Source: Octopus vulgaris (taxonomy: Eukaryota). From it: a DNA stretch of 64,000 nucleotides. The notes under the pieces were generated by a model. The model searched no databases and was not told the origin of the DNA. It was given only the letters and a program-made list of their open reading frames with translations. The stretch lies in NCBI GenBank assembly GCA_951406725.2, contig OX597827.1:74958001-75022000 (forward strand), given 5' to 3'. Made by a program: the position numbers and the translations under genes. Each line of letters starts with the position of its first letter. Position 1 is the stretch's first letter. Below are positions 3,978-62,655 of the stretch, piece by piece.

Positions 3978-4112
3978 TTTGCTGACAGTCGGAACCCATG
4001 CGTCCCATTGCACAGCCTCTAGGACATGCGCCATGAATCGGGTTGCAGGCGTCATTATTCATACAGTTACATCTTTTGGTGCAACGTAGTCCATATGTGC
4101 CTCCTTGGCAGA
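3978..4112 (-). CDS. EGF-like exon C1: [45 protein letters not shown]
   Basis: Minus strand tttgtttcacag|TCTGCCAAGG...TGTCAGCAAA|gtaagt; 135 nt, 8 Cys. Confidence 0.9.
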
Positions 4113-7100
4113 CTGTGAAACAAACGTATTATATTTTATATTGCGTAAAACAGTAAAGAACTCGTTTCATAATTGAAGAGATGGAAACAAACCAAGCAAT
4201 GACTGATGACCAAGACAACCATAATAGGAAATCGTTTAACCAACTACGGCGCCTCAATATTTTCGATTGATCTGCTAGTAACAGCGACCAAATCTTCCTC
4301 AAACAATACCCTGTTAGACTACAAACAAGAAACATTAAACAATGGAGACCTAAATATCTCTTAAGATGGCCACGGGTGGAATATCTATAACCGTAGATCT
4401 TTCTAATCAGTCAGGATTCATCAGAATATAAACAACAGCAGTAGTAGTGGTTGAATAACATGGGACTGTCTTCTCGATCTAAGTTTACCCAAATGCAAAT
4501 AACATCATCAGCAACAACAAAAGCAATGATATACAAACAAATAAGAAAGCCAAATCTCTCAGCAATCACTCAACTTGCTAGTACATCGTATCAACGAGGG
4601 AACTGACTTGGGCTTCATCTTTACCATAAAGTTTGAGGTCATCCATGAATAACAAGTGGTTGACTATTTGTTGGTGGCTTTTGAATACATACCCAGCTTT
4701 TGCTTTCCTGAGAATCAGTGTTAGTGAAATCAAGCACAGTACAAAGATCAATGGAGACAGGCAGTCCTCTTGGAAGTTGCCTTTCTGATTTCTACTTTCC
4801 CTAAACTTCTTTCGTATGCTGCCAGGTCCGTCCTCCAATTCACCATACTTTTTCCAACATTCGATGCAATACCAAATAGGTTCATACATTCCATAATTCA
4901 AGAATGTAGGATCATATCGTACGCCTTACAATAGTCGATCCATGACATGGCTAAGTTACTTTTCTTCCTCTTACAGTCTCTAAGAATAGTTTTGTCTATC
5001 AGGAGTTGATCCTTGTAACCTCTGCACTTATGCTTGAAACCCTTCTGCTCATGTGGCAGGACTCCAAATTTTTTTCCAGATGTTCGTACATTGACTCTGC
5101 AAGTATTCCAGTTAATAGTTTCCACATAAGTGGCAAACAAGATATTGGCCAGTAGTTGTGTACCATATTGCCTTTTTCGATGTTTTTCAAGCACAGCACT
5201 GTCCTACCCAATGTCAACCACTCTGGTGTTACTTGGTCGGCATTTAACAAGGTGTTGATTTGTGCCACTATTCGTGCATGACATTCACCAAATCATTTGA
5301 TCCAGTAGCCTTGAACTCTATCTGATCCCGGGGCCTTCCAGTTGCTCCTTTTTTTTTTTTTGCTTCTTTCCTTCACTTTCCGAACTGAAATGACTAGTCC
5401 TGTCTGTTTTGGACAGACTACTGTTTGTCTCAGTTCTTGCAACCATAACCATTCAGCATCCTTTTCGTGCTCCTTATCTTTGCTCAAGATGTCACTCGAA
5501 CATCTTTGACTTTCATTGTTATCTGGTATCAACTTTTCATCTGTACATTCTCCATTTATTCCTTTATAGAATCTCTTCTGATCTACTCTGAATAACCCAT
5601 GCTGGTGGTAACCCTTCATTCTTTGGTCGTATCTTACCATCTTTGCTTTCTTTGCAACGAAGTGCTGTTTCAGTTCTTCTATTACCACTTTTAGGCCCTT
5701 TCTTTCAGTATCATACTTCCTGTTCGGTGTCATGTATTTTTATTCGTTTTTAAGTAACCTCTTCTCTTTTCGGTTTCACCAGTAATGACTTTCGGGAGCA
5801 TACTTAACCCCACCTGTATTCTTCTTTTCTACCATGGATTTTTTTCTTTTGTCACTCCCATTATATATCTTTTTCTTGACATCATCATCTACATTTTCTG
5901 CTACAGCAATACTTGCTGCCTTGATCAAATTTTTTGTTTCTGTAATGTTTTTTTGTTCTCGTGTATTTCAGAATTTCATGTCTCTCATCGAGCAAGTTAT
6001 CACTGTTCCTTTCCTGTGGTTTATTAGAGATCTCACCTCTGCTTTCTACTATGAGATTACTTTTATCAGTAAGAACAGCATTTTCATCGTTTCCTCTACT
6101 GCTGTTTCCCAATACCCGTCTTTTGATAGCTTCGAGCTATACTTCCGGGAACCAACGATTTTTTTCTTATTTCTCTATCTTGATCACATAATCTCTGTTC
6201 TGTGTATTGAAACTATCCTCTCTCTCTTCTTTGATCATACATAAGTTGTCGGTATCCCCTAATATATGAACAATATTTTCGTCTACAGGGTTAGGGTTGC
6301 TCAGGTAGTAACATTCCATGACCACAGCATTGATTTGTTAGTTCCATCTAATCTGTGTGGTCGGATCCCTTGCTGGATAACGACAGGCTGGGAGTCAGGC
6401 CTGTAGCTCTGAGCCTGCCAGGTGCAACGCTGTCACAATCATGGATTTCAGTTTCATTACTACCATTATTCACAATATTTTTCATCGTCACTCATATGAG
6501 ATAGCGATTATCAGATTGCACAATTACCAGTGTTTTTATTGTGACCCCATCACTAGATGTACCATCAATCAGGACATGGGAAGTTTCCAATCGCTAAGCA
6601 GCTAATATGAAACCTTCACTCTCTGCTTTTAGCCCTGAACTTCGTAACCATTGGTGCGTGTGTTTCTGGTCGATATCAGCTTGTTTGCTACGGGCCACAT
6701 ACTTGCCATGGAAAGGTTTCGGTTCCCATCTGCTAGCTAAATTTTCATGTGCTTTTGTCTTTGCAATTAATTTTATTTTCTTTGCAGCTGTAGTTGGCGC
6801 ATTTCCTTCAGCCTGCTCAATCTGGTGGGTATCTAAGAGATCAGCAGCAAATTTTTTGCTCTCTTTGAGAATAGAATGAATTTTTTTAGGCCTTTCATGT
6901 TTTTCAACAAGTTTTAGCATCCAATCGTTGGTTGCTTCAAGGTATTTGGACAGTCCAATTGTTGTGGTTTTGTATGTAAGTTCAAGCTGGATCAAACCTC
7001 GACCTCCCTGAGCTCTGGGAAGGTAAAGGCGATCCACGTCTGCCTTTGGATGGTGCATCTTATTACAAGTCAGTAGCTTGCGGATTTTCCTGTCAATTTT

Positions 7101-10100: not shown

Positions 10101-13100
10101 AGATGAATGGTTGGGAGAGATTGGAATAGAATGTCCTGAAGAGCTTCCACAGAGAGTTTGCCTCTAGGGACAGGAAAAATTATCAGAAGGGTTTTCAGCA
10201 CTTGAAAGATTAACGAAAGCTTGAGGATATATAAAGTTACTGGTAGTAACCCATTACCCACATAAATTCTAGCAAGAATAAGAACGAACCTGAGTCAAAT
10301 AATATCTTTTATTGTTAGAGGAACAACAAAAGAGTCGATTTCGCAAGGACAAATTAGAAAGCGAAACAAAAAATATACTTGAAAAGAAAATCCTCAAGAG
10401 AGTAGGTTGGCGGGGTAATTTTCAGTCAAATGAGGAAAAGAATTACACTAGGCCAATCACAGAAGGCCAGATAAATTCTGGCAGGTGAAGTCCTAACATA
10501 AAATTCGTCCATAAGTGATTTGAACTAAATATATTCACTTTGAAATTACTTCATAATTCCAATGGTATAATCAGTTGTTTCATACTCACATTCTTGACAG
10601 CTTTTACCCCGATATCCAGCAACACATCCATGAGCACAAGTACCATATGCTGGGTTGCAACTGTCGTCAATACAATGACACTGTTTATGACATTTATCTC
10701 CAAATGTGCCTTTAGGGCATACTGAAAAAAATAACAGAAGAAACACGTTTTAACTTACGAATTTATTGTTGCCTTTTAAATATCAGTAACACAATACTAC
10801 TGGCATCATAGTCAACGCCAACTGAAGACAGAACCATATTCTTTTGCAAATTTCACAGAGATTTCCTGAAGCTTCCAGATGGTTTGTTTCATTCACAAGG
10901 CTTGAATCAAACCAGGACTTTCACAGAAGATATTTGCCAAACGTTTTTTGCATCGAAATCGAACCTTAAACAAGCTAAACTAGCTTCTTAATGAATCAAC
11001 CAACCCAAAACTTTGTAAAGTCAAAAACTTTAACCAACAGAAATCTAAGAATGTATAAGACAGACGACTATTTCAAGCAATTAGTTAGATGTCTTCAGGC
11101 ACACAATCTTCTGCCATCTCCCTCCTTAGTACACGCTGTGCGACTCTTGCATACTTTGTTATCTTTCCTGTTAGCACACGTTCTTCGCCCATGTTAGTAT
11201 ACTATGTAGTCAACGTTGACAATACATGTTATTACTTCCCTTGTCATCACAAGTTGTCGTTCCCTCTGATGTACCCCTTGCTGTACCCCTTGTTAGTATA
11301 CTTTGTTATGTTGTTAGCTTAGGCTGTTGTTTCTCTAGTTTGTATATCTTGTTGTCTCCCTTGTTTTTATATTTTGCTGAAAAAGCAAGTACATTGTTAG
11401 TACACTGTTCCATGTCACACACAGTACTGTCACCCTTGTTGGTAATCTTTGCTATATCTTGTATTAGCATCTCAGAATACATAACTAAAAAGAACAACAA
11501 TTGCAATACACAATGACAACAGAAAGCAAACGTTATTAACCTTCTTTACAAGTGCCTGAAGTGAAACCAGGTGGACATCCATGTGGGCATATTCCAGTGA
11601 CTCTGTCGCACACGTCCTTATCTCGACAGTTGCATTCCTCATTACAGCCAGAACCATACTTTCCAGGAGAACACTCTGAAAAGAACAATTTCTTTTAATA
11701 TCCACCAGATTTGATGTTAAACAGACTCTGTTAAAGTTTAAAATATCAGATACACTTTACTGACTACATGAATTAAGAATTAGAAGAGACAAGTTAAAAG
11801 CTACCGAAAGAATTATGTGAAGGATTTCCTTACGATGCCATTTATCAAATGCTGTTTCTGTTTTTGCGGAGTTCAGTTTAAAATCAGATACGATGAGCAT
11901 ATCTATAATAGTTGATCGAAAGAGTAAGTGCAAGTCACAGATCTATTACACTTGATATACGAAGCCTTCACCACTTGGTGGGCCTTCGCACTAATACATC
12001 CTGAATATGAATTATTGTCAGTTGGGACATGTGTTTCTTTTTTTTGCCCAGTCTATTTTTGTATGCTTGTTGGTTCAAGTGATGAACTCCTCGAGGACAA
12101 ATGTGAAATCTAGAGAGCGCTTAAGGTGGTTCTTGGAGTTGTTTGGCCCCAAAACAATGACCACCCAGCTTATTTTCAGAGAGTGTATACAGTATCTGAA
12201 TAGCTAAATTATCTTATGTATTCTTTCTTTGTATACGAGGGTAGTGTGTGATTTGAGGAAGATTTGGCTACTATTTCTTGCAGGTCAGGATTGTGTGTGT
12301 GTGTGTGTGTGTTTCCTTGGACGGATATTCTCTTCAGAATAGTGTTGAAATTGTTGTTGCTTCGACCACTGTTAGCCTTGATCAGATATCTAAGGTATTC
12401 CGTCATTCGCTGTTGGTTTTAAGTGTAAAATATCTTTTTAAGATGGAGAATGCAATTTGAATGGCATTTGGCTGCTATTTTTAACAAATCAATCAATCCT
12501 ACAAAATTTCTTTCGTGGTCCTTTGGTGTTGTAGCAGTGTTGGGCTGTGTAACAGATATGTTTGAAGGAGTATCAGAGGTTGATATTGCAGTAGTTGTGA
12601 AGGCGTTGTATATGCAAATGTTTGCTAACGGAGTTATAGAGATTGTAAGGGTTAGATTTTGCTGTACCAACACAATTTGTTCTTCGCTAGGTTTGGAGTG
12701 ATTTAATTTTTAGGGTTCACTTAGAATGAGGAATGAAAGTAACATATGAAGGTGATGCATATCTGTTATTGGAAGTTATGTGCAGTTTAAGATTAAAAGG
12801 AATGGGTAGAGTTCGGGTCTTTGTGGTAACTATACGGAATTTCTCTTATATTTCATGGCTTAAATATTTTTAAAATCTTTACTCTTATCTAAACATATAT
12901 TTTGAGTAACTACTATACCAATAGTTGCCCCTGTTAAGTACTACTCAACAAAATCGCATATGTCTGCTTATAAACTGTCCGCTCTACAAGTCAGACACTC
13001 AGACTTCAGAAATCCGATCCTTTTCTTCCAAAGACTTGGTGGATTAAACTATCTTCTAATCTCTGTCATTAACTCTTTGTTGATTAATCCATTATCTCCA

Positions 13101-14180: not shown

Positions 14181-14215
<35 letters not shown>

Positions 14216-16251: not shown

Positions 16252-16298
<47 letters not shown>

Positions 16299-16299
16299 A

Positions 16300-16378
<79 letters not shown>

Positions 16379-30072: not shown

Positions 30073-33000
30073 GAGTGAGAGAGCAGTGCATGCCATCAAA
30101 GTGACACTGGGGTAAAATATACGAAGCCCAGTATACACATCATGACTACCCGTCTGATAAGGGTACACATGCATCACAACTATATGTGCGCAACATGGTG
30201 ATCTCATATCAAGATAAATAGCGCAGACGACTATTTCAAGCAATTAGTTAGATGTCTTCAGGCACACAATCTTCTGCCATCTGCCTCCTAAGTACACGCT
30301 GTGCCACCCTTGCATACTTTGTTATCTTCCCTGTTAGCACACGTTCTTTGCCCATGTTAGTATACTATGTAGTCAACGTTGACAATACATGTTATTACTT
30401 CCCTTGTCATCACAAGTTGTCGTTCCCTGTGATGTACCCCTAGCTGTACCCCTTGTTAGTATACTTTGTTATGTTGTTAGCTTAGGCTGTTGTTTCTCTA
30501 GTTTGTATATCTTGTTGTCTCCCTTGTTTTTATATTTTGTTGAAAAAGCAAGTACATTGTTAGTACACTGTTCCATGTCACACACAGTACTGTCACCCTT
30601 GTTGGTAATCTTTGCTATATCTTGTATTAGCATCTCAGAATACATAACTAAAAAGAACAACAATTGCAATACACAATGACAACAGAAAGCAAACGTTATT
30701 AACCTTCTTTACAAGTGCCTGAAGTGAAACCAGGTGGACATCCATGTGGGCATATTCCAGTGACTCTGTCGCACACGTCCTTATCTCGACAGTTGCATTC
30801 CTCATTACAGCCAGAACCATACTTTCCAGGAGAACACTCTGAAAAGAACAATTTCTTTTAATATCCACCAGATTTGATGTTAAACAGACTCTGTTAAAGT
30901 TTAAAATATCAGATACACTTTACTGACTACATGAATTAAGAATTAGAAGAGACAAGTTAAAAGCTACCGAAAGAATTATGTGAAGGATTTCCTTACGATG
31001 CCATTTATCAAATGCTGTTTCTGTTATTGCGGAGTTCAGTTTAAAATCAGATACGATGAGCATATCTATAATAGTTGATCGAAAGAGTAAGTGCAAGTCA
31101 CAGATCTATTACACTTGATATACGAAGCCTTCACCACTTGGTGGGCCTTCGCACTAATACATCCTGAATATGAATTATTGTCAGTTGGGACATGTGTTTC
31201 TTTTTTTGCCCAGTCTATTTTTGTATGCTTGTCGGTTCAAGTGATGAACTCCTCGAGGACAAATGTGAAATCTAGAGAGCGCTTAAGGTGGTTCTTGGAG
31301 TTGTTTGGCCCCAAAACAATGACCACCCAGCTTATTTTCAGAGAGTGTATACAGTATCTGAATAGCTAAATTATCTTATGTATTCTTTCTTTGTATACGA
31401 GGGTAGTGTGTGATTTGAGGAAGATTTGGCTACTATTTCTTGCAGGTCAGGATTGTGTGTGTGTGTGTGTGTGTGTTTTCCTTGGACGGATATTCTCTTC
31501 AGAATAGTGTTGAAATTGTTGTTGCTTCGATCACTGTTAGCCTTGATCAGATATCTAAGGTATTCCGTCATTCGCTGTTGGTTTTAAGTGTAAAATATCT
31601 TTTTAAGATGGAGAATGCAATTTGAATGGCATTTGGCTGCTATTTTTAACAAATCAATCAATCCTACAAAATTTCTTTCATGGTCCTTTGGTGTTGTAGC
31701 AGTGTTGGGCTGTGTAACAGATATATTTGAAGGAGTATGAGAGATTGATATTGCAGTAGTTGTGAAGGCGTTGTATATGGAAATGTTTGCTAACGGAGTT
31801 ATAGAGATTGTAAGGGTTAGATTTTGCTGTACCAACACAATTTGTTCTTCGCTAGCTTTGGAGTGATTACATTTTTAGGGTTCACTTAGAATGAGGAATG
31901 AAAGTAACATATGAAGGTGATGCATATCTGTTATTGGAAGTTATGTGCAGTTTAAGATTAAAAGGAATGGGTAGAGTTCGGGTCTTTGTGGTAACTATAC
32001 GGAATTTCTCTTATATTTCATGGCTTAAATATTTTTAAAATCTTTACTCTTATCTAAACATATATTTTGAGTAACTACTATACCAATAGTTGCCCCTGTT
32101 AAGTACTACTCAACAAAATCGCATATGTCTGCTTATAAACTGTCCGCTCTACAAGTCAGACACTCAGACTTCAGAAATCCGATCCTTTTCTTCCAAAGAC
32201 TTGGTGGATTAAACTATCTTCTAATCTCTGTCATTAACTCTTTGTTGATTAATCCATTATCTCCAATTTGACAGAGAAATTAGGAGAGGTATTTTATTTC
32301 TTCCGAAACTGACCTTCTCTGATGTCTAAATTTACTTTTCTTTACTATATATGAACTTCTCTATTTTACGAATTTTAATAATCTTGTAATAATACCCAAA
32401 CTGGGCGTTGCAATACAATGATTTACCTCGAGGTGTAATTAGATGTGCCACGACAATAATACAATATTTTAAAGCAGAAAAGACAAAATAATGTACTTAA
32501 TATAAAGTACTTCCTTTATTTACTAGCATTACATGTAAAAAAATAGATTGAAGAAGAAATAAGGTATGTATAAATCTCATAAAGATGTGTTAAGTAGCTG
32601 TTTTTGTTTCGATTCTGTTTGAAAATTTAATTAAATATGACTAGATTTAATACATGCACATCTTCATCATTTTAAACTTTGTGTATCGTATCTCCCACTA
32701 AAAGCCGATTTTTTCAAGAAGGAAAAAAATATTGGATTAGTTCTATATTCTTGACGCCAAAAGGATGAAAGGAAAAATTGGTTTAATCGACTGATACTGA
32801 TATCTCCCAAATTTTTCGAAGTATGAAATCTACAGCTGAAAATGAATCTTTAATGTCTTCATAGTCGTATTTGCACTTTAAGATTGAGTGAGAATATAAA
32901 TTCCAACAGCTATAGTATTCTTGTAAGAAAATAGGTACGTTTATCTTTAATAAATTCAAACATTGAAATATATTGATAAAAATATCAATATCCGTTTCTC

Positions 33001-48800: not shown

Positions 48801-51800
48801 TGACGGGGTAATTTTCAGTCAAATGAGGAAAAGAATTACACTAGGCCAATCACAGAAGGCCAGATAAATTCTGTCAGGTGAAGTCCTAACATAAAATTCG
48901 TCCATAAGTGATTTGAACTAAATATATTCACTTTGAAATTACTTCATAATTCCAATGGTATAATCAGTTGTTTCATACTCACATGCTTGACAGTTTATAC
49001 CCTGATATCCAGCAACACATCCATGAGCACACTGACCATATATTGGGTTGCAACTGTCGTCATTACAATGACAGGTTTTACTACAGTTATCTCCATATGT
49101 GCCTTTAGGGCATGCTGAAAAAAACCCAGAAGAAACACATTTTAACTTACGAATTTATTGTTGCCTTTTAAATATCAGTAACAGAATATTACTGGCATCA
49201 TAGTCGACGCCAGCTGAAGGCAGAAACATATTCTCTTGCAAATTTCACAGAGATTTCCTGAAGCTTCCAGATGGTTTGTTTCATTCACAAGGCTTGAATC
49301 AAACCAGGACTTTCACAGAAGATATTTGCCAAACTTTTTTTGCATCGAAATCGAACCTTAAACAAGCTAAACTAGCTTCTTAATAAATCAACCAACCCAA
49401 AACTTTGTAAAGTCAAAAACTTTAACCAACAGAAATCTAAAAATGTATAAGACAGACGACTATTTCAAACAATTAGTTAGATGTCTTCAGGCACACAATC
49501 TTCTGCCATCTCCCTCCTTAGTACACGCTGTGCGACTCTTGCATACTTTGTTATCTTCCCTGTTAGCACACGTTCTTCGCCCATGTTAGTATACTATGTA
49601 GTCAACGTTGATAATACATGTTATTACTTCCCTTGTCATCACAAGTTGCCGTTCCCCTGTGATGTACCCCTTGCTGTACCCCTTGTTAGTATACTTTGTT
49701 ATGTTGTTAGCTTAGGCTGTTGTTTCTCTAGTTTGTATATCTTGTTGTCTCCCTTGTTTTTATATTTTGTTGAAAAAGCAAGTACATTGTTAGTACACTG
49801 TTCCATGTCACACACAGTACTGTCACCCTTGTTGGTAATCTTTGCTATATCTTGTATTAGCATCTCAGAATACATAACTAAAAAGAGCAACAATTGCAAT
49901 ACACAATGACAACAGAAAGCAAACGTTATTAACCTTCTTTACAAGTGCCTGACGTGAAACCAGGTGGACATCCATGTGGGCATTTTCCAGTGACTCTGTC
50001 GCACACGTCATTATTTCGACAGCTGCATTCCGAATTACAGCCAGTACCATACTTTCCACCAGGACACTCTGAAAAGAACAACTTCTTTTAATATTCACCA
50101 GATTTGACGTTACACAGACTCTGTTAAAGTTTAAATATCAGATTCACTTTACCGACTACATGAATTAAGAATTAGAAGAGACAAGTTAAAAGCTACCGAA
50201 AGAATTATGTGAAGGATTTTCTTACGATGCCATTTATCAAATGCTGTTTCTGTTATTGCAGAGTTCAGTTTAAAATCAGATACGATGAGCATATCTATAA
50301 TAGTTGATCGAAAGAGTAATTGCAAGTCACAGATCTATTACACTTGATATACGAAGCCTTCACCACTTGGTGGGCCTTTGCACTAATACATGCTGAATAT
50401 GAATTATTGTCAGTTGGGACATGTGTTTTTTTTTTTGCCCAGTCAATTTTTTGTATGCTTGTCGATCCAAGTGATGAACTCCTCGAGGACAAATGTGAAA
50501 TCTAGAGAGCGCTTAAGGTGGTTCTTGGAGTTGTTTGGCCCCAAAACAATGACCACCCAGCTTATTTTCAGAGTGTATACAGTATTTGAATAGCTAAATT
50601 ATCTTATGTATTCTTTCTTTGTATAAGAGGGTAGTGTGTTGTTTGAGGAAGATTTGGCTACTATTTCTTGCAGGTCAGGATTGTGTGTGTGTGTGTTTCC
50701 CTGGATGGATATTCTCTTCAGAATAGTGTTGAAATTATTGTTGCTTCGACCACTGTTAGCCTTGATCAGATATCTAAGGTATTCCGTCATTCGCTGTTGG
50801 TTTTAAGTGTAAAATATCTTTTTAAGATGGAGAATGCAATTTGAATGGCATTTGGCTGCTATTTTTAACAAATCAATCAATCCTACAAAATTTCTTTCGT
50901 GGTCCTTTGGTGTTGTAGCAGTGTTGGATTGTGTAACAGATATGTTTGAAGGAGTATGAGAGATTGATATTGCAGTAGTTGTGAAGGCGTTGTATATGCA
51001 AATGTTTGCTAATGGAGTTATAGAGATTGTAAGGGTTAGATTTTGCTGTACCAACACAATTTGTTCTTCGCTAGCTTTGGAGTGATTTAATTTTTAGGGT
51101 TCACTTAGAATGAGGAATGAAAGTAACATATGATAGTGATGCATATCTGTTATTGGAAGTTATGTGCAGTTTAAGATTAAAAGGAATGGGTAGAGTTCGG
51201 ACCTTTGTGGTAACTATACTGAATTTCTCTTATATTTCATGGCTTGAATATTTTAAAAATCTTTACTCTTATCTAAACATATATTTTGAGTAACTACTAT
51301 ACCAATAGTTGCCCCTGTTAAGTACTACTCAACAAAATCGCATATGTCTGCTTATAAACTGTCCGCTCTACAAGTCAGACACTCAGACTTCAGAAATCTG
51401 ATCCTTTTCTTCCAAACACTTGGCGGATTAAACTATCTTCTAATCTCTGTCATTAACTCTTTGTTGATTGATCCATTATCTCCAATTTGACAACGAAATT
51501 AGGAGAGGTGTTTTATTTCTTCGGAAACTGACCTTCTCTGATGTCTAAATTTACTTTTCTTTACTATATATGAACTTCTCTATTTTACGAATTTTAATAA
51601 TCTTGTAATAATACCCAAACTGGGCGTTGCAATACAATGATTTACCTTGAGGTGTAATTAGATGTGCCACGATAATAATACAATATTTTAAAGCAGAAAA
51701 GACAAAATGATGTACTTAATATAAAGTACTTCCTTTATTTACTAGCATTACATGTAAAAAAAAATTGATTGAAGAAGAAATAAGGTACATTTATCTTTAA

Positions 51801-54800
51801 TAAATTCAAACATTGAAATATATTGATAAAAATATNNNNNNNNNNNNNNNNNNNNNNNNNNNNNNNNNNNNNNNNNNNNNNNNNNNNNNNNNNNNNNNNN
51901 NNNNNNNNNNNNNNNNNNNNNNNNNNNNNNNNNNNTCCTGTTCGGTGTCATGTATTTTTATTCGTTTTTAAGTAACCCCACCTGTATTCTTCTACATTTT
52001 TTGCTACCATGGATTTTTTTTCTTTTTGTCACTGCCCATTGATATATCTTGTTTCTGTAATGTAATGACTTTCGGGAGCATACTTAACCCCACCTGTATT
52101 CTTCTTTTCTACCATGGATTTTTTTTCTTTTGTCACTCCCATTATATATCTTTTTCTTGACATCATCATCTACATTTTCTGCTACAGCAATACTTGCTGC
52201 CTTGATCAAATTTTTGTTTCTGTAATGTTTTTTTGTTCTCGTGTATTTCAGAATTTCATGTCTCTCATCGAGCAAGTTATCACTGTTCCTTTCCTGTGGT
52301 TTATTAGAGATCTCACCTCTGCTTTCTACTATGAGATTACTTTTATCAGTAAGAACAGCATTTTCATCGTTTCCTCTACTGCTGTTTCCCAATACCCGTC
52401 TTTTGATAGCTTCGAGCTATACTTCCGGGAACCAACGATTTTTTTTCTTATTTCTCTATCTTGATCACATAATCTCTGTTCTGTGTATTGAAACTATCCT
52501 CTCTCTTTCTTTGATCATACATAAGTTGTCGGTATCCCCTAATATATGAACAATATTTTCGTCTACAGGGTTAGGGTTGCTCAGGTAGTAACATTCCATG
52601 ACCACAGCATTGATTTGTTAGTTCCATCTAATCTGTGTGGTCGGATCCCTTGCTGGATAACGACAGGCTGGAGTCAGGCCTGTAGCTCTGAGCCTGCCAA
52701 GTGCAACGCTGTCACAATCATGGATTTCAGTTTCATTACTACCATTATTCACAATATTTTTCATCGTCACTCATATGAGATAGCGATTATCAGATTGCAC
52801 AATTACCAGTGTTTTTATTGTGACCCCATCACTAGATGTACCATCAATCAGGACATGGGAAGTTTCCAATCGCTAAGCAGCTAATATGAAACCTTCACTC
52901 TCTGCTTTTAGCCCTGAACTTCGTAACCATTGGTGCGTGTGTTTCTGGTCGATATCAGCTTGTTTGCTACAGGCCACATACTTGCCATGGAAAGGTTTCG
53001 GTTCCCATCTGCTAGCTAAATTTTCATGTGCTTTTGTCTTTGCAATTAATTTTATTTTCTTTGCAGCTGTAGTTGGCGCATTTCCTTCAGCCTGCTCAAT
53101 CTGGTGGGTATCTAAGAGATCAGCAGCAAATTTTTTGCTCTCTTTGAGAATAGAATGAATTTTTTTAGGCCTTTCATGTTTTTCAACAAGTTTTAGCATC
53201 CAATCGTTGGTTGCTTCAAGGTATTTGGACAGTCCAATTGTTGTGGTTTTGTATGTAAGTTCAAGCTGGATCAAACCTCGACCTCCCTGAGCTCTGGGAA
53301 GGTAAAGGCGATCCACGTCTGCCTTTGGATGGTGCATCTTATTACAAGTCAGTAGCTTGCGGATTTTCCTGTCAATTTTCATCATTATTAGTATTATTAT
53401 TATTATTGAGTGAGAGAGCAGTGCATGCCATCAAAGTGACACTGGGGTAAAATATACGAAGCCCAGTATACCCATCATGACTACCCGTCTGATAAAGGTA
53501 CACCAGGCACATACATCACAACTATATGTGCGCAACATGGTGATCTCATATCAAGATAAACAGCGCATTACCTTGCAGGTGGGGCACAGTTAGAATTTTC
53601 TTCTGGTCGAGTAACACATCCCACTCAAAAGGTCTCTGAATAAAGGTTGTTTAAGGATGTTGAACAAAACACCCTTTCTAGTTTTGTTAGCCACTCTGCG
53701 CTTTCTTTATATCTCGCCGGCTTTTTCTACAGTCTTCCTCCAAATTCTTTACTTTCTTCCGCATCTCAAATCAGTTCTTAGTGTTGGCGTCCCTCTGTTT
53801 CCTCATATAGATGCCTTCTATTTTATTGGAACAGTCTATGCTATTCGAAACCTTTGCATTTATCATCATTTTTTTTATTAATTTGGCTTTTTTTTGTGTC
53901 AATTCTTCCATCCGTTTCATATTCTTCCTGTTTTACCCTTTCATTACCGCTCTCTGCTACCGTTGTTTCACTCTCCTTCTGCTAATTTATTATTATGTTT
54001 CTCTGAATTTCTTCAATCTCTACTGCCATAACCCAGTCGTCCCCACATATTACTCTTATTAGTCTATCAGTCACAGGGCGGATGCTTCAAAGCCTCCTTT
54101 CTTCATCCAAATATTCTCTTTATTTGATTCATGAAGCCTCTTTTATTTGGCTCACTTCTCAGCCAGTATTCGATTACTATTTAGTTTACTTCTTTTCGCA
54201 TTTCATTCTTTTTATTTTGCACTTTTGACTGCGACTTTGGTCCTGACCAATAGCTTGATGACAATCTGCCAGAACTTGACCAGATACTCCCTGCCTGCCG
54301 AGCGCGACATCTTTACCTTTTACATTTCCAGTCCTGTTAGTGCAGTTGTGGTTACTATTTAATTTTGACATCACTCATTTAGAGGTACCATTTGTAAGAT
54401 TGTGCAACCACCAGTATTTTTATTGTGACACCATCACTAGGTGAGTTGCTAGTCAAGGCTCCGATAGTCCACATCAACCCTCGTGTACAGTGTTTAGTGT
54501 CATTCTTGTTCATTCCAATGTTTTATATTTTTATATTTGACATTTTCACTCCTGGGAATTTTTGTTAAGGCGGCTAGCTGGTAGAGTCGTTAGCACGTTG
54601 GACGAAATGCTTAATAGTATTTCACCCATCGTTACATTCTGAGTTCAAATTCCATCGAGATCGACTTTGCCTTTCCTGCTTTCAGGGTTGATAAATTAAG
54701 AACCAGCGGAGACACTGGGGTCGATGTATTCGACTGGTCCCCTCCCCAAAACTTCAGGCCTTGTGCCTTTACTAGAAAAAGATAATTGTTGTTGTTGTTT

Positions 54801-57800
54801 TTGTTATCTCAACTGAATCACAAGTGTCGAATCGTCGTGAGACTAAACCAGCAACTCCCACAGAACCTGCTCTGTGGAGAGTGTATTTTTCTTGCTATTT
54901 GCTAACCCTTCAGGATGAAATACAAGCCTGTTGAAGAGTAGATGAACTCAGGGGAGTCAGCGGTCACCTACACAGCAACTTTTCATTAGTTGTGCATCCG
55001 ATTAGATCATTACCGCTCAGAGTACTGGGTTGGTGTACAATGCAAATAGCTTACTTAAACTTTCAAAGGTAATGGCTGGAAAATTTCCCAGAATTATACA
55101 AAAGAATAGATATGCAAATGGATAAAATGATCAACAACAGGGTATAAATCCCAAAATGCATTACCACAGGGAAAATAGCTCTTTACCAAAGACGACTCCA
55201 GTAAATGTAATGCAGTGGAAAATTACCGGCCATTCTCCTACTTACTACTGATTTGGAATTTGATGTCAGGAATGTAACTAACTGTGCGTATGACATGCTG
55301 AAAATAACTGACAAGCTGCCAGTGGAACAGCAGAGATGCACATAGGCATTGATATGTAGTACCCAGGAACAAACGCTGAGAAATAATTACTCCAAGGTCC
55401 AAATAGACAAGAACAATGAATCGCTCCTTTGTGGGTTTATGGCATCAAAAAAACGAAATAATCTCACATATTGTGAGTGAATTTAGCAAACTAATCCAAA
55501 AGGAATACAAAAAGAGGCACGATAACAGGGCTAAGTTTGTTCACTAGATATTGCATGAGAAGTATGGTCTTGAAAGAACACAGACAAAGCCTGCTAAAAT
55601 ATAGTAGACTACTATAGAACAACACACAGAAAATACTAAAGGCAGTGAATAGAGAGCAGGTGGTCAAATGTGGAAATAGGAGGAAAAGACGAAAATGATA
55701 TTCAAAGAGAGCATTATAAACAGATTGAAAAAAAAATCTGCATGGTCAGTATTTGAAAGCCACTGAAGATGTACGTGAAACAAAAATCTGGGCTTCATTA
55801 AAAACAAAAGGGCATTTAAAAAAGAAACAGAGTGCCTTGTTAAAACAGCTGAAGATAAAGCAATAAAAACAAATAATTTGAAAAAATATGTGTATGGGGA
55901 GGTGTCAGCAAAATGTAAAGTGTGAGGTATTTGAGATAAAACAATGGTGCACATTGTTGCAGAATATCCCAGGTTGGCTCATACAGAATATACGAAATGG
56001 AGACATGACCAAGTATTGCAAGTTTTTCACTGGGCGCTTCATCAGAAATGGGGATTTGAAGCTCAAAGTACTTGGTATCACCATTGGGTTGAGAGGGTGC
56101 TTGAGTCGGAGAAAGCAAGATTTTATGGGATTTTCCCATTCAAACAGATAAGAAGCTAGGAAACAGTAAACCAGATATAACAATAATAGACAAGGAAAGG
56201 CGAAGTTGCTTACTAATTGATCCATCGTGTCCGTTCGATTCCAGGATTGTTAAGAAAGAAGAAAAACATTTTAAAATCCAATCCTTTAAAATTTGCAATT
56301 GCGAGAATTTGGAGCATGAAATATGTAAAGGTTGTTCCTGCAATAATTGGTGCATTAGGATCTGGGAGTAAGGATATAGATGAATGGTTGGGAGAGATTG
56401 GAATAGAATGTCCTGAAGAGCTTCCACAGAGAGTTTGCCTCTTATGGACAGGAAAAATTATCAGAAGGGTTTTCAGCACTTGAAAGATTAACGAAAGCTT
56501 GAGGATATATAAAGTTACTGGTAGTAACCCATTACCCACATAAATTCTAGCAAGAATAAGAACGAACCTGAGTCAAATAATATCTTTTATTGTTAGAGGA
56601 ACAACAAAAGAGTCGATTTCGCAAGGACAAATTAGAAAGCGAAACAAAAAATATACTTGAAAAGAAAATCCTCAAGAGAGTAGGTTGGCGGGGTAATTTT
56701 CAGTCAAATGAGGAAAAGAATTACACTAGGCCAATCACAGAAGGCCAGATAAATTCTGGCAGGTGAAGTCCTAACATAAAATTCGTCCATAAGTGATTTG
56801 AACTAAATATATTCACTTTGAAATTACTTCATAATTCCAATGGTATAATCAGTTGTTTCATACTCACATTCTTGACAGCTTTTACCCCGATATCCAGCAA
56901 CACATCCATGAGCACAAGTACCATATGCTGGGTTGCAACTGTCGTCAATACAATGACACTGTTTATGACATTTATCTCCAAATGTGCCTTTAGGGCATAC
57001 TGAAAAAAATAACAGAAGAAACACGTTTTAACTTACGAATTTATTGTTGCCTTTTAAATATCAGTAACACAATACTACTGGCATCATAGTCAACGCCAAC
57101 TCAAGACAGAACCATATTCTTTTGCAAATTTCACAGAGATTTCCTGAAGCTTCCAGATGGTTTGTTTCATTCACAAGGCTTGAATCAAACCAGGACTTTC
57201 ACAGAAGATATTTGCCAAACGTTTTTTGCATCGAAATCGAACCTTAAACAAGCTAAACTAGCTTCTTAATGAATCAACCAACCCAAAACTTTGTAAAGTC
57301 AAAAACTTTAACCAACAGAAATCTAAGAATGTATAAGACAGACGACTATTTCAAGCAATTAGTTAGATGTCTTCAGGCACACAATCTTCTGCCATCTCCC
57401 TCCTTAGTACACGCTGTGCGACTCTTGCATACTTTGTTATCTTTCCTGTTAGCACACGTTCTTCGCCCATGTTAGTATACTATGTAGTCAACGTTGACAA
57501 TACATGTTATTACTTCCCTTGTCATCACAAGTTGTCGTTCCCTCTGATGTACCCCTTGCTGTACCCCTTGTTAGTATACTTTGTTATGTTGTTAGCTTAG
57601 GCTGTTGTTTCTCTAGTTTGTATATCTTCTTGTCTCCCTTGTTTTTATATTTTGCTGAAAAAGCAAGTACATTGTTAGTACACTGTTCCATGTCACACAC
57701 AGTACTGTCACCCTTGTTGGTAATCTTTGCTATATCTTGTATTAGCATCTCAGAATACATAACTAAAAAGAACAACAATTGCAATACACAATGACAACAG

Positions 57801-57953
57801 AAAGCAAACGTTATTAACCTTCTTTACAAGTGCCTGAAGTGAAACCAGGTGGACATCCATGTGGGCATATTCCAGTGACTCTGTCGCACACGTCCTTATC
57901 TCGACAGTTGCATTCCTCATTACAGCCAGAACCATACTTTCCAGGAGAACACT
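3978..57953 (-). CDS. Partial multi-exon gene: multiple EGF-like (laminin-EGF type) repeat protein, MEGF10/CED-1/SCARF-like ectodomain; 10 exons visible, both ends outside the window or not found
   Basis: Ten 132/135-nt exons with a polypyrimidine-AG acceptor and GT donor, all phase 1-1, no internal stops, each with 8 Cys in the pattern C-x2-G-x-[YF]-G-x2-C-x3-C-x-C-x4/5-C-x4-G-x-C-x2-G-C-x2-G-x5-C. Junction codons from A3 to C1 are all sense (GCA, TTC, CAG, GTC, CAG, GTA, TTC). That they form one transcript is inference. Confidence 0.8.
4578..6593 (-). mobile_element. Degenerate R4/Dong-like non-LTR retrotransposon, 5' part to RT core (paralogs 26676-28697, 42390-44414, 51936-52873)
   Basis: Frameshifted RT motifs [31 protein letters not shown], WIDYx[25 protein letters not shown]. 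Confidence 0.9.
6594..7103 (-). mobile_element. Remnant of a second R4/Dong-like element (3' end deleted in copies 1 and 4; paralog 52873-53382)
   Basis: [21 protein letters not shown]...HGKY...[18 protein letters not shown]. Confidence 0.9.
7128..8160 (-). mobile_element. Internally deleted R4/Dong-like element next to (TAA)n (paralogs 45818-46860, 53408-54440; truncated at 30072-30225)
   Basis: N-terminal-like peptide on the minus strand; 5' sequence (gtgacaccatcactag) similar to that of the 4578-6593 element; abuts a TAA repeat. Confidence 0.55.
8290..8505 (+). mobile_element. tRNA-derived SINE, present in copies 1 and 4 (54567-54785), absent in copy 3
   Basis: GGCGGCTAGCTGGTAGAGTCGTTAG A-box region, GAGTTCAAATTCC B-box, GATCGACTTTGCCTTTC core. 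Confidence 0.85.
8790..10300 (+). mobile_element. Degenerate, internally deleted R4/Dong-like LINE with restriction-like endonuclease (paralogs 46965-48690, 55068-56580)
   Basis: [47 protein letters not shown]...[20 protein letters not shown]. Confidence 0.85.
10590..10721 (-). CDS. EGF-like exon B1: [44 protein letters not shown]
   Basis: ttatttttttcag|TATGCCCT...CAAGAAT|gtgagt; 132 nt; lies within ORF-track entry 10546..10746. Confidence 0.9.
11541..11675 (-). CDS. EGF-like exon A1: [45 protein letters not shown]
   Basis: ttgttcttttcag|AGTGTTCT...AAAGAAG|gttaat; 135 nt; the ORF track reports a different frame here. Confidence 0.88.
13590..14030. mobile_element. Two old degenerate SINE remnants in opposite orientations
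   Basis: aaaaggatgaaaggaaaaattgac (minus) and gaagttcaaattctgttgac...tttccatccttcc (plus) resemble the SINE core. Confidence 0.45.
14163..14232. repeat. (GTA)n/(GCA)n microsatellite (also 33728-33787, 60441-60519)
   Basis: Direct reading. Confidence 0.95.
14445..16250 (+). mobile_element. 5'-truncated CR1-group LINE (RT), three single-site frameshifts, (ATT)n tail
   Basis: [77 protein letters not shown]. Confidence 0.95.
16253..16378. repeat. (ATT)n followed by (AAT)n, a self-complementary microsatellite pair (also 35801-35866, 62543-62654)
   Basis: Direct reading. Confidence 0.95.
16530..18460 (+). mobile_element. Degenerate L1/Tx1-like LINE 5' part: ORF1 and start of APE endonuclease (paralogs ~36030-37710, ~62810-64000)
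   Basis: ORF1-like ...[18 protein letters not shown]; [31 protein letters not shown] matches the APE N-terminal motifs (NVRGL, xET). Confidence 0.65.
18460..18960 (-). mobile_element. L1/Tx1-like APE endonuclease fragment, opposite orientation (paralog 37710-38200)
   Basis: [12 protein letters not shown]...[10 protein letters not shown]...FRLVALYIP; the copy-2 paralog reads [31 protein letters not shown]. Confidence 0.7.
19072..19168. repeat. (CT)n(AT)n microsatellite (paralog 38324-38433 has different lengths)
   Basis: Direct reading. Confidence 0.95.
19422..19950 (-). mobile_element. Solo LTR (529 bp) with 4-bp TSD
   Basis: TGTA...TACA ends; GTTG duplicated at 19418-19421 and 19951-19954; single GTTG at the empty site 38681-38684; AATAAA on the minus strand near 19550. 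Confidence 0.85.
19951..21460 (-). mobile_element. Degenerate L1/Tx1-like ORF1 region (paralog 38685-40190)
   Basis: Same peptide as 1-950 plus a low-complexity N/T/K-rich tail; oriented toward the minus-strand APE fragment. Confidence 0.5.
22556..25500 (+). mobile_element. Two head-to-tail Helitron-like copies (22556-24029 and 24030-25500)
   Basis: Exact junction ...GATACTGCTAG|TCTCTTATTATAAAAGG; each carries the piggyBac fragment. Confidence 0.85.
26076..26210 (-). CDS. EGF-like exon C2: [45 protein letters not shown]
   Basis: tttgttttacag|TCTGCGAA...CAGGAAC|gtaagt; 135 nt, 8 Cys. Confidence 0.9.
28730..30040 (-). mobile_element. 5'-truncated R4/Dong-like element with Zn knuckle and RLE, inserted in (TAA)n (paralog 44470-45775)
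   Basis: [54 protein letters not shown]; TAA repeats on both sides. Confidence 0.92.
30704..30838 (-). CDS. EGF-like exon A2 (identical to A1 by eye)
   Basis: Same splice sites and sequence as 11541-11675. Confidence 0.88.
33994..35800 (+). mobile_element. CR1-group LINE, copy 2 (stops and frameshifts)
   Basis: Same RT motifs, with in-frame TAA/TGA and small deletions. Confidence 0.95.
41791..41925 (-). CDS. EGF-like exon C3: [45 protein letters not shown]
   Basis: tttgttttacag|TCTGCGAT...CAGGAAC|gtaagt; 135 nt; 3 nt different from C2. Confidence 0.9.
48983..49114 (-). CDS. EGF-like exon B3: [44 protein letters not shown]
   Basis: gggtttttttcag|CATGCCCT...CAAGCAT|gtgagt; 132 nt, 8 Cys. 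Confidence 0.9.
49934..50068 (-). CDS. EGF-like exon A3: [45 protein letters not shown]
   Basis: ttgttcttttcag|AGTGTCCT...AAAGAAG|gttaat; 135 nt, 8 Cys. Confidence 0.88.
51836..51935. other. Assembly gap (100 N)
   Basis: Run of N; exactly 100 N usually marks a gap of unknown size. Confidence 1.
56868..56999 (-). CDS. EGF-like exon B4 (identical to B1)
   Basis: Same sequence and splice sites as 10590-10721. Confidence 0.8.
57819..57953 (-). CDS. EGF-like exon A4 (identical to A1)
   Basis: Same sequence and splice sites as 11541-11675. Confidence 0.8.
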
Positions 57954-60458
57954 CTGAAAAGAACAATTTCTTTTAATATCCACCAGATTTGATGTTAAAC
58001 AGACTCTGTTAAAGTTTAAAATATCAGATACACTTTACCGACTACATGAATTAAGAATTAGAAGAGACAAGTTAAAAGCTACCGAAAGAATTATGTGAAG
58101 GATTTCCTTACGATGCCATTTATCAAATGCTGTTTCTGTTTTTGCGGAGTTCAGTTTAAAATCAGATACGATGAGCATATCTATAATAGTTGATCGAAAG
58201 AGTAAGTGCAAGTCACAGATCTATTACACTTGATATACGAAGCCTTCACCACTTGGTGGGCCTTCGCACTAATACATCCTGAATATGAATTATTGTCAGT
58301 TGGGACATGTGTTTCTTTTTTTGCCCAGTCTATTTTTGTATGCTTGTTGGTTCAAGTGATGAACTCCTCGAGGACAAATGTGAAATCTAGAGAGCGCTTA
58401 AGGTGGTTCTTGGAGTTGTTTGGCCCCAAAACAATGACCACCCAGCTTATTTTCAGAGAGTGTATACAGTATCTGAATAGCTAAATTATCTTATGTATTC
58501 TTTCTTTGTATACGAGGGTAGTGTGTGATTTGAGGAAGATTTGGCTACTATTTCTTGCAGGTCAGGATTGTGTGTGTGTGTGTGTGTGTTTCCTTGGACG
58601 GATATTCTCTTCAGAATAGTGTTGAAATTGTTGTTGCTTCGACCACTGTTAGCCTTGATCAGATATCTAAGGTATTCCGTCATTCGCTGTTGGTTTTAAG
58701 TGTAAAATATCTTTTTAAGATGGAGAATGCAATTTGAATGGCATTTGGCTGCTATTTTTAACAAATCAATCAATCCTACAAAATTTCTTTCGTGGTCCTT
58801 TGGTGTTGTAGCAGTGTTGGGCTGTGTAACAGATATGTTTGAAGGAGTATCAGAGGTTGATATTGCAGTAGTTGTGAAGGCGTTGTATATGCAAATGTTT
58901 GCTAACGGAGTTATAGAGATTGTAAGGGTTAGATTTTGCTGTACCAACACAATTTGTTCTTCGCTAGGTTTGGAGTGATTTAATTTTTAGGGTTCACTTA
59001 GAATGAGGAATGAAAGTAACATATGAAGGTGATGCATATCTGTTATTGGAAGTTATGTGCAGTTTAAGATTAAAAGGAATGGGTAGAGTTCGGGTCTTTG
59101 TGGTAACTATACGGAATTTCTCTTATATTTCATGGCTTAAATATTTTTAAAATCTTTACTCTTATCTAAACATATATTTTGAGTAACTACTATACCAATA
59201 GTTGCCCCTGTTAAGTACTACTCAACAAAATCGCATATGTCTGCTTATAAACTGTCCGCTCTACAAGTCAGACACTCAGACTTCAGAAATCCGATCCTTT
59301 TCTTCCAAAGACTTGGTGGATTAAACTATCTTCTAATCTCTGTGCATTAACTCTTTGTTGATTAATCCATTATCTCCAATTTGACAGCGAAATTAGGAGA
59401 GATATTTTATTTCTTCGGAAACTGACCTTCTCTGATGTCCAAATTTACTTTTCTTTACTATATATGAACTTCTCTATTTTACAAATTTTAATACTCTTGT
59501 AATAATACCCACACTGGGCGTTGCAATACCATGATGTACCTCGAGGTGTAATTAGATGTGCCACGACAATAATACAATATTTTAAAGCAGAAAAGACAAG
59601 ATAATGTACTTAATATAAAGTACTTCCTTTATTTACTAGCATTACATGTAAAAACAAATTGATTGAAGAAGAAATAAGGTATGTATACATCTCATAAAGA
59701 TGTGTTAAGTAGCTGTTTTTGTTTCGATTCTGTTTGAAAATTTAATTAAATATGACTAGATTTAATACATGCACATCTTCATCATTTTAAACTTTGTGTA
59801 TCCTATCTCCCACTAAGAGCCGATTTTTTCAAGAAGGAAAAAAATATTGGATTAGTTCTATATTCTTGACGCCAAAAGGATGAAAGGAAAAATTGACATT
59901 AGTGGTATTTGAAATCACTGTACAAATATTCTTAAGAAATACTGCAAGGTACCCTATTCGATGTTTTAACACCTCTGCCTCTTCTGCGTCTATTGGCATT
60001 CATTATATTGGGAAAGTCATTTTTTATGTCAGGAATGTAGTGCAATGAAATTACCTGTGAAGTATATTACTGACACAGAAAAAAGATACTAAATTTAAAG
60101 AATTGTTACAGTGTATTGCAAAATCCTTGCAGTATTTAGCTTTGGCCATTTAAGTCTAAAGTTCAAATTCTGTTGACATTAACTCCACTTTCCATCCTTC
60201 CAGAATTAATAATATTAAAAAAAATTTACCAATACCGGAATTGGTTTAATCGACTGATACTGATATCTCCCAAATTTTTTGAAGTATGAAACCTACGACT
60301 GAAAATGAATCTTTAATGTCTTCATAGTCGTGTTTGCACTTTAAGATTGAGTGAGAATATAAATTCCAACAGCTATAGTATTCTTGTAAGAAAACACCCA
60401 GGAATTATTAACTTTGAAACATATTCTACAAAATGTTAACGTAGTAGTAGTAGTAGTA

Positions 60459-60502
<44 letters not shown>

Positions 60503-60729
60503 CCAGTAGCAGCAGCAGCAGGAGAAGGAATTCAAAAACTGGTGGAAGATACGGGGTAATTTATACTCAGAGCAGAGACGATCCGGAATGCGACAGAGTG
60601 GTTACTTCTAAAGGCAGCCAAGGAGTAGGTCATGATGTTAAAATGTGTAGTAGTAGTAGTAAGTATAATTTTTATGGCCGCCCTACTAAGGAGACACGGT
60701 ACCTCGAAGCTCAGTATGTTGTAGTAGTG

Positions 60730-62540
60730 CTTGAATTTGAACAGTGCATAGCAGCCAATCCTGACAGCAAGGTTTTCTGGATATATGTGCATTCAAAGCA
60801 GAGACCTCACTCTCCAGTGGGCCCTCTTCGCAACCCTCACACAAATCAGATCACTGACGACCCCAAGGAACGCGCAGAACTCATTGCCGAGTGCTATTCA
60901 AACATATTCACTGTTGAAAGTCAAAATGTACCATCTTCACCATCACTAACAGCAAATTCCATAACAACTATGGAATTTACACCTGCAATGCTGCGACGTC
61001 ACCTTCAAAATAAGTGCAACTATGCCTCCCCTGGTCTTGATGGAGTTACATACCTGCTTCTCAAACGTGGCAGGTACTTCCTTTTATACCAGCTTTCTAT
61101 TTTCTTCCAGTACTCTCTCAACAATGGTGCTACTCCGGAGCAGTGGAAAACTGCCAGTGTCATTCCTCTGTTCAAAAAGGGCGACCGCACATCACCTGTC
61201 AACTATCCCCCAGTCAGTCTCACTAGCTGTATTGCAAAACTGATGGAATCGTGTGTCAGAGAAACACTCTGGAACTTCTGGAGCTCTCACAGTCTCATCC
61301 GACCCTCACAATATGGATTTGTCCCTGACTCCAGCTGCAGTGATCAGCTTGTCGAGTTCCTTGAGGACATTACTCAGATCACTGACAGTGGCTCATGGGT
61401 GGATGTTGTCTACCTTGACTTTGCTAAGGCTTTCAACTCTGTGCCACACAAAAGGCTTATGGTGAAACTCTCTGCAATGGGTGTGAGGGATGACCTTTTT
61501 AACTGGTTGAAATCCTTCATTCTTAGCCGAAAGGAGGTAGTCACAGTTCTAGGACAGCATTCTACACCATATGAGATGTCATCGGGTGTACCACAGGGAT
61601 CTGTCCTTGGTCCCCTCTTGTTTGTGGCATACATTAATGACATAGATGCCAATTTAAAGAATGCCACAATATTGAAATATGCAGACGACATCAAGCTGTA
61701 CCTTGAAATCAAGAGGACAGATCCTGATGTCTACAACTCTTTCCTGCAATCAGACCTAGACACAATGCAGCAATGGATCACAGACTGGCAACTGAAACTG
61801 GCTGTGGACAAGTGTACCACCATGCATTTTGGGAGAAAAAACCCTGCGTCCACATACTCCCTCCACAACACTGATATCAAGAAATCCTCCTGCGAGCGTG
61901 ACCTAGGCATCACTGTCAGCAGTGATTTGCGTTGGACAAAGCATATCTCTAAAATTGTCGAGAAGGCCGAGGGTGTCTTGGCATCATTCAGCAAGACTTT
62001 TCTTTGCCACTCTCCAGCCATCTATTTAAAACTGTATACAGCTATGGTACGACCACACTTGGAATTCGCATCATCAGTTTGGAACCCCTATCTTGCTCAG
62101 AACATTGACCTCCTGGAATCTGTCCAGAGACGTGCAACCAAACGCATACCCTCCATCAGACACCTACCATATTCTGAGCGCCTTGTTTCCCTGGGCATGG
62201 ATTCACTGAAGCTCCGGCGTCTGGCGACGGACTTGATAAGCACCCACAGAGTTATCAACCACCTCACCAACAACAACACTGAACGCCTTCTTGATCTCCA
62301 TGTGTCTAACACATGTGGACATGCCTACAAAGTCAGAAAACAACACAGCTACCATGACTTTCGGGAACGTTTTTTCACGCTCAGAGTTGCTGAAGCATGG
62401 AATAAACTGCCTGCGTCAGTTGTTGACTGCCATGACACTACATCCTTTAAGGCCCTCATGCTTTCCGAAATCCGCCGAAACTACACCTGATTGTATATAC
62501 ACTTTAGATGAGTTGTAGTGCACCTGAGCACTGTACACAA
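60730..62540 (+). mobile_element. CR1-group LINE, copy 4: 5'-truncated but uninterrupted RT frame (630-aa ORF 60598-62490)
   Basis: ORF track; full RT motif set; no endonuclease domain. Confidence 0.95.
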
Positions 62541-62571
<31 letters not shown>

Positions 62572-62573
62572 AA

Positions 62574-62655
<82 letters not shown>

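Follow-up and report, generated by a model that had tools for sequence, protein, structure and literature searches.

Near-identical introns and divergent EGF exons in the repeat array of a predicted octopus membrane protein

Under interlocus gene conversion, duplicated genes can show a divergence peak, as described for exon 5 of the red/green opsins in humans and for RHD/RHCE, and as treated in the model of Teshima and Innan (PMC3924837; PMC2588116). Intragenic concerted evolution of exon–intron repeats is known from Argiope MaSp2 and the flagelliform spidroins, with tenascin-X given as a reference in the same account (PMC9779670). A molluscan example is Pacific oyster bindin, in which each exon repeat encodes one F-type lectin domain and both positive selection and recombination act among the repeats (PMC5712786). 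Tetrahymena leucine-rich-repeat exon arrays (PMC6564038) and the system of 10.1101/2025.10.29.685298 are analogies only.

The array of EGF exons described here, from Octopus vulgaris, resembles the opsin case in that introns appear homogenised, differences between exons are kept, and exons are nearer to the ortholog of another species than to their own paralogs (here at the protein level). The opsin and RHD cases, as described, involve a pair of genes with selection at one or two sites, whereas the octopus array has 23 domain exons in one gene with about half of the codons under positive selection; moreover, the octopus exons alone keep a four-unit order, and the halo of divergence beside them is weak and one-sided. 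As in the spidroin genes, iterated introns inside one gene are ~97% identical and the repeat units are hierarchical, but the coding repeats of MaSp2 are homogenised along with the introns (PMC9779670) and the octopus exons diverge fivefold more than theirs. In bindin it is the lectin domain that is repeated and diversified (PMC5712786); the octopus protein has only one lectin-type domain, a stalk of repeated EGF modules and a predicted transmembrane segment.

A repeat array within one predicted receptor gene

The window analysed is a stretch of 64,000 nucleotides (assembly GCA_951406725.2, OX597827.1:74958001-75022000; genome size 2.8 Gb), to which 200 kb were added on either side. Self-comparison of the window revealed array units of ~18–21 kb that are 93–97% alike and carry, on the minus strand, three classes of EGF exon, namely A (135 nt), B (132 nt) and C (135 nt), all of phase 1-1 with AG/GT ends (Table 1). 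Statistics were computed on eight independent units, U1–U8, with 23 exons, because U4 has no B exon. Unit 0 is represented by a partial flank only, and one B copy is absent from the data set; three exon copies to the right of the assembly gap that have twins to its left, and two frameshifted copies, were left out. The sample is one haplotype from one assembly, with a gap close by.

The segment 5782–51835 recurs across that gap at 52062–98154 (coordinates of the extended window); the two copies are separated by 69 mismatches and by 86 gaps, of which 56 are differences in homopolymer length, and two exons are frameshifted. This 46-kb repeat is probably a false assembly duplication, which raises the array from 8 to ~11 units; the second copy was excluded from all statistics, save the intron stretch at its end, since this forms the tail of unit 2. 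The introns (4560–9900, 14100–17800 and their equivalents) consist mostly of decayed non-LTR retroelement pieces that were copied along with the units, and the presence or absence of insertions in them is itself mosaic across units.

Table 1. Features of the octopus array in window coordinates
Feature	Position	Strand	Remarks
EGF exon C5 (called C1 in the sequence-only reading)	3978..4112	-	135 nt, phase 1-1, AG/GT ends
C5 acceptor flank, flagship halo	4113..4202	-	13 differences from C4 flank, 5 private to the C5 copy
Intron stretch adjoining C5 halo	4203..4560	-	5/358 against C4 unit; more homogeneous than array average
EGF exon B5	10590..10721	-	132 nt; same sequence as B1, four units upstream
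B5 acceptor flank	10722..10860	-	has variants in common with B1 flank (same exon type)
EGF exon A5	11541..11675	-	135 nt
A5 acceptor flank	11676..11770	-	6/94 against A3 flank
EGF exon C4	26076..26210	-	unit 4 lacks a B exon
EGF exon A4	30704..30838	-	identical to adjacent A5
EGF exon C3	41791..41925	-	
EGF exon B3	48983..49114	-	
EGF exon A3	49934..50068	-	
Assembly gap, 100 N	51836..51935	.	
Start of 46-kb second copy of 5782-51835	52062..64000	.	99.5% identical; holds B 56868-56999 and A 57819-57953

All array exons belong to one predicted membrane protein with a lectin-type domain and an EGF stalk, as judged from an Octopus bimaculoides model (P0004) that maps exon by exon across 305 kb of the O. 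vulgaris locus. P0004 runs from a signal peptide through an EGF, an unnamed domain, an EGF, an F5/8-type lectin domain, an EGF, a single A-B-C unit and a further EGF to a transmembrane segment. The O. vulgaris gene has the same anatomy, but with eight A-B-C units, less one B, before the last EGF and the transmembrane segment; the expansion is absent from the O. bimaculoides model, which carries one A-B-C unit only; that species may have a single unit, or its assembly may be collapsed here. The signal peptide is identical to that of P0004 at 20 of 20 residues; the single-copy mature exons differ at 11–21 of 44–48 residues and the lectin exons at 17/86 and 14/63 (20–47% in single-copy domains), so the whole ectodomain is fast-evolving. 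The U2/U6 exon types are accelerated (23 residues from P0004, against 11–12 for A and B of U1) and swap acidic for basic and aromatic residues.

Pfam families PF22633 and PF00754 score above the cut-off in three database models (P0002, P0003 and P0004), a match to the F5/8 type C/FTLD fold. The cation motif h2DGx of F-type lectins (PMC5712786) is present as AVDGT in the exon at 168397. The canonical fucose motif HX24RXDX4(R/K) was not found in this domain, where H-X24-R is followed by N-T instead of X-D; the histidine is leucine in P0004. Tandem 8-cysteine EGF-like repeats precede the predicted transmembrane segment, as in MEGF10/Draper/CED-1, although Pfam EGF matches of single exons fall below the cut-off. 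MEGF10/Draper/CED-1 receptors have an N-terminal EMI domain and cytoplasmic NPxY/ITAM signalling motifs. The Pfam scan of P0004 reports no EMI family, which sets the octopus protein apart from MEGF10/Draper; in its 8-cysteine EGF repeats, lectin-type head and transmembrane segment it resembles molluscan receptors that databases name ‘MEGF10/Draper-like’ with an F5/8-type domain. The protein is a putative receptor for immune or gamete recognition, borne on a long stalk.

Annotated models are available for three Octopus species, each a fragment with 2–7 array exons, and no full-length model is among the database matches; P0001, P0002 and P0003 break the gene into pieces and include false exons derived from introns. 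A contig from one presumed-RNA run passes from exon into intron. A minus-strand open frame of 1020 amino acids with lysine/glutamate-rich repeats lies 13 kb past the transmembrane exon (L011:1685-4744), without a Pfam match; it may be a cytoplasmic tail or a separate gene. In the literature on octopus F-type lectin/EGF proteins, coverage of which is incomplete, we found no paper that treats this gene. Another EGF family, larger and made of two-exon units, lies at 73.4–74.5 Mb of OX597827.1, with 49 exons in the 200 kb sampled, in both orientations and some with stops. In one class of this family (18 of 27 copies kept), measured with an exon length set 3 nt too low, introns are as diverged as exons (π of 0.03–0.11 against 0.07–0.10) and no acceptor rise was seen; the filter applied to the second class kept just 2 copies.

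Exons and introns that follow different orders

Introns of the array form a fine mosaic that follows neighbouring units, and exon types recur every four units. Exon π is 0.14–0.17 against an intron background of 0.030 (14,411 columns, eight units), a contrast of about five- to sixfold, with divergence concentrated in the exons. Units four apart have the closest exons (C 20, 5, 8 and 0 nt; B 8, 1 and 0; A 2, 11, 2 and 3), and most other pairs differ by 10–39 nt. By unit pair, U1/U5 differ by 3, 0 and 0 nt, U2/U6 by 2, 1 and 8, and U3/U7 by 11, 8 and 5, with neighbours differing by up to 39. Between B1 and B2, 33 sites differ in the exon, against 4 of 652 in the introns nearby. Two Octopus sinensis models contain 11 array exons of the same types in the same order, each 0–3 (at most 4) amino acids from the O. 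vulgaris types at the protein level, whereas the mean distance within the O. vulgaris array is 11–14 amino acids. The O. sinensis split is dated to ~2.5 million years ago and that of O. bimaculoides to ~34 (10.1101/2023.05.16.540928).

Most of the exon change alters amino acids, with pN of 0.16–0.21 and pS of 0.04–0.09. Single-ratio estimates of ω are 2.8, 14.4 and 2.1 (P = 0.03, 3e-5 and 0.04), and a site model places 46% of codons at ω = 8.6 (2dl = 57.9), with 31 of 131 codons at a posterior >0.95; the tests held topologies and relative branch lengths fixed, and both recombination and multi-base changes inflate them. The sequence-only reading had proposed that part of the exon/intron contrast reflects older exon ancestry, and a small part of it may, given that mean pairwise exon dS is ~0.06 (with wide limits) against 0.03 in introns; the synonymous tree length of 0.154 (about 0.08–0.26) is indistinguishable from the 0.135 of the intron tree, and codons with an invariant amino acid hold 3 synonymous variants in ~44 sites, not above introns. 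Older ancestry explains at most about twofold of the contrast, and not significantly; amino-acid change accounts for the rest. Within exons, incompatible site pairs make up 3%, 10% and 13% for A, B and C, a mosaic for which convergence is an alternative source. The A6 exon (L020:2883-3017) and its twin A2 hold a 14-nt block in which 13 positions are unlike those of most other A exons, so that PFRWN replaces RDKDV; no donor of the block was found, and a microinversion, considered as the source and inspected by eye, does not fit.

Every pair of units differs by 2.5–4.0% in its introns. Among 12,869 intron columns, 323 are informative and 206 are doubletons, where naive recurrent mutation would give ~10. 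Doubletons fall in adjacent units at 13.9 per 10 kb against 7.4 when permuted (P = 0.0003; P = 0.0007 for non-CpG sites), and units four apart show no excess (7.5 per 10 kb, P = 0.38). Four-gamete incompatibility is 0.23 at <25 bp and 0.40–0.47 at >50 bp, which is about the value for unlinked sites (permutation P = 0.0005); linkage is significant at 5–50 bp, not at >50 bp, and is lost within ~100 bp. A GENECONV-type test for long identical tracts, which the sequence-only reading had suggested, gave a weak signal, with 3 of 28 pairs at an uncorrected P < 0.01; together with the short-range decay of linkage, this rarity of long tracts points to short ones.

The intron tree is star-like and groups neighbours (U3+U4, 99%; U7+U8, 90%). 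In AU tests the exon pairing is rejected by the intron alignment (P = 0.0009), as is the intron tree by the exons (P = 2e-6); because such tests assume one tree per data set and the introns do not have one, these values establish discordance and not a true intron tree. The proposal that conversion keeps the units alike except at exons is thus supported by neighbour-tracking variants, by loss of linkage within ~100 bp and by rejection of the exon tree, evidence that is stronger than the halo from which the proposal began.

Divergence beside the exons

The sequence-only reading had noted about a dozen differences upstream of C5, followed by near-identity. The counts bear this out, with 13 of 90 positions differing between 4113–4202 and 26211–26300; the stretches beyond the C, B and A flanks have 5/358 (4203–4560), 5/340 and 10/329 differences. 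None of 1,055 far-intron windows of 90 bp from the C pair reaches 13/90 (maximum 0.114; background of this pair 374/11562). The similar rise claimed for B and A is there in the counts (10/138 and 6/94) but is not exceptional, as 7–8% of 1,282 windows reach a similar density. The stretch past the C halo is itself more alike than usual (1.4% against 3.2%), so that the halo stands out more sharply. Five of the 13 differences are private to the C5 copy, 2 are common with its neighbour, 2 are common to the partner and the partner’s neighbour, and 4 are of intermediate frequency; private clusters of 3–8 per 90 bp also occur far from exons. Among the pieces listed from contigs of eight other runs, one of 61 bp is identical to 4105–4165 and none has the four private changes at 4178–4196; as contigs drop rare variants, this speaks neither for a sequence error nor for real absence.

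Across all eight units, π in the 90 bp on the acceptor side is 0.040, 0.026 and 0.063 for A, B and C (mean 0.043 against 0.029, P = 0.061; P = 0.15 without U5, the unit in which the halo was noticed), and the contrast between near and adjoining sequence (P = 0.02) is present for A and C and absent for B. Shared (informative) sites are about doubled on this side, at 0.051–0.055 per bp against 0.026 (P = 0.027, 0.008, 0.0045 and 0.0026 at 60, 90, 120 and 150 bp), with singletons unchanged, which is the pattern of older shared ancestry and not of a mutation hotspot. All of these halo P values are one-sided, for a side picked by the sequence-only reading from the same data, and are among several statistics tried. 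In flanks out to 120 bp, shared sites show a slight correlation with exon distance (acceptor 19 sites, far 80 sites; P = 0.013).

Donor flanks are not raised (π of 0.007, 0.004 and 0.039 for A, B and C; mean 0.016). The 150 bp on the donor side of A and B (10500–10590, 11390–11540) have two variable sites each across 7–8 units (π 0.006); possible causes of this near-invariance are constraint on splicing elements, recent conversion or chance with three exon classes. Flat divergence up to the exon edges, which would speak against a halo, is not seen at the acceptor edge, but the donor side is not raised and the mean π of the six flanks together is 0.030, equal to the background. The halo is real but small, ~1.5–2 fold, one-sided and confined to the acceptor, with borderline statistics, and is the weakest part of the finding.

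Competing histories and their implications

Neighbour-tracking introns, the four-unit order of the exons and the mutual rejection of their trees together support exchange among introns from which exons escape. We therefore consider it likely (a probability of roughly 0.7) that introns are kept ~97% alike by short copying between nearby units, and that exons are driven apart by positive selection and shielded from copying, which would erase their amino-acid differences. A single A-B-C unit might have expanded to about four, after which the exon types would have diverged under selection and the four-unit block would have been duplicated; gene conversion in tracts of ~100 bp or less may then have scrambled the introns, with tracts that crossed differing exon sites being purged. 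Tracts of this length should leave no more than a narrow, weak halo, as observed. A barrier model with tracts of 50–100 bp and exon dS of 0.06 predicts a 90-bp flank π of 0.040–0.046, against 0.043 observed on the acceptor side; in 12 simulations per setting, halos were symmetric, hardly visible at 50 bp and 1.6-fold at 150 bp, and single flanks scattered widely. Against this model stand the symmetry it predicts, given that the A and B donor flanks are nearly invariant, and an excess of singletons (0.061 per bp observed, 0.033 in the equilibrium simulation; Tajima’s D −0.9), which suggests a history less steady than modelled. The donor-side deficit and the singleton excess are unexplained by the barrier model.

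If the units were instead young tandem duplicates that diverged independently under extreme positive selection, without conversion, the halo would be noise. The star-like intron tree with 2.5–4.0% between all unit pairs, the high ω, pooled flanks at background level and a synonymous tree length that fits the intron tree all agree with such a history, but one history cannot yield both neighbour-tracking introns and exon twins four units apart. Twin exons are also too alike, with 2 synonymous differences in 9–10 pairs (U1/5, U2/6 and U3/7; ~270 sites) where 2.8% divergence predicts ~7, and linkage is gone within 100 bp; the two topology tests strongly disfavour this account, which we regard as improbable. 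An equally doubtful alternative reverses the roles: introns would keep the true duplication order, and whole exons would be copied between units by exon-limited conversion, possibly through spliced RNA, to produce the twins. It would explain why the C exons of units 1 and 5 are the same over 135 nt although their flanks differ at 8/90 positions and by 3.8% further out, and it fits some of the mosaic within exons. However, three unit pairs have all three exons matching at the one offset of four, a regularity that patches copied independently would not produce, some flank variants near B track the exon type, and the intron itself is not tree-like.

Import of exon-sized cassettes from distant donor paralogs, raised by the sequence-only reading, fared poorly in DNA and protein searches and is very unlikely. 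Donor-cassette diversification, as with avian immunoglobulin pseudogenes, VSG and vls, involves a closer donor outside the expressed locus and programmed or somatic exchange. The 14-nt block of A2/A6 and the presence of a large EGF-exon family within 1.6 Mb would suit it, yet DNA searches with C5 found 10 array copies and one 49-bp intron-side match, and those with A6 (11/11) and B6 (9/9) found the array only; the best outside proteins are at most 45% (C5) and 56% (A6) identical, and synonymous distance between types is at most ~0.12. These searches covered 3 of the 23 exons as DNA and 2 as protein, with best-scoring candidates only, in an assembly that may lack a donor. Just as remote is an artefact in which units 1–4 and 5–8 are two haplotypes assembled in tandem, creating the four-unit period. 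A probable false duplication of 46 kb and a gap do lie inside the array, but units 3, 4, 5 and 6 are contiguous to the left of the gap, the neighbouring units 4 and 5 have common intron variants and an identical A exon, and an O. sinensis model too has an A4/5-type and a B1/5-type exon after the unit-3 types.

Returning to intron exchange with selected exons, the array combines, as the opsin-type peak does, exchange among introns, divergence concentrated in exons and exons nearer to the types of another species, here O. sinensis at the protein level. A more speculative and rather unlikely extension is that recognition modules along the stalk make up an ordered code, whose acidic and basic/aromatic EGF types keep their four-unit register despite the wholesale scrambling of introns; the one-sided halo would then mark 3′ splice regions under joint selection with the exon type beside them, as combinatorial splicing into many receptor forms would entail.

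The array provides 23 replicate exons in one gene on which to test the model of selection against conversion, for which the cases so far are mostly of two genes. In arrays of this kind the clocks of exons and introns record separate histories, so that repeats dated by intron identity are misdated and rates taken from exon/intron ratios are too high. For octopuses, the locus points to a fast-evolving, lineage-expanded surface receptor, so far predicted and fragmented in current gene models, that is a candidate for immune or gamete recognition.
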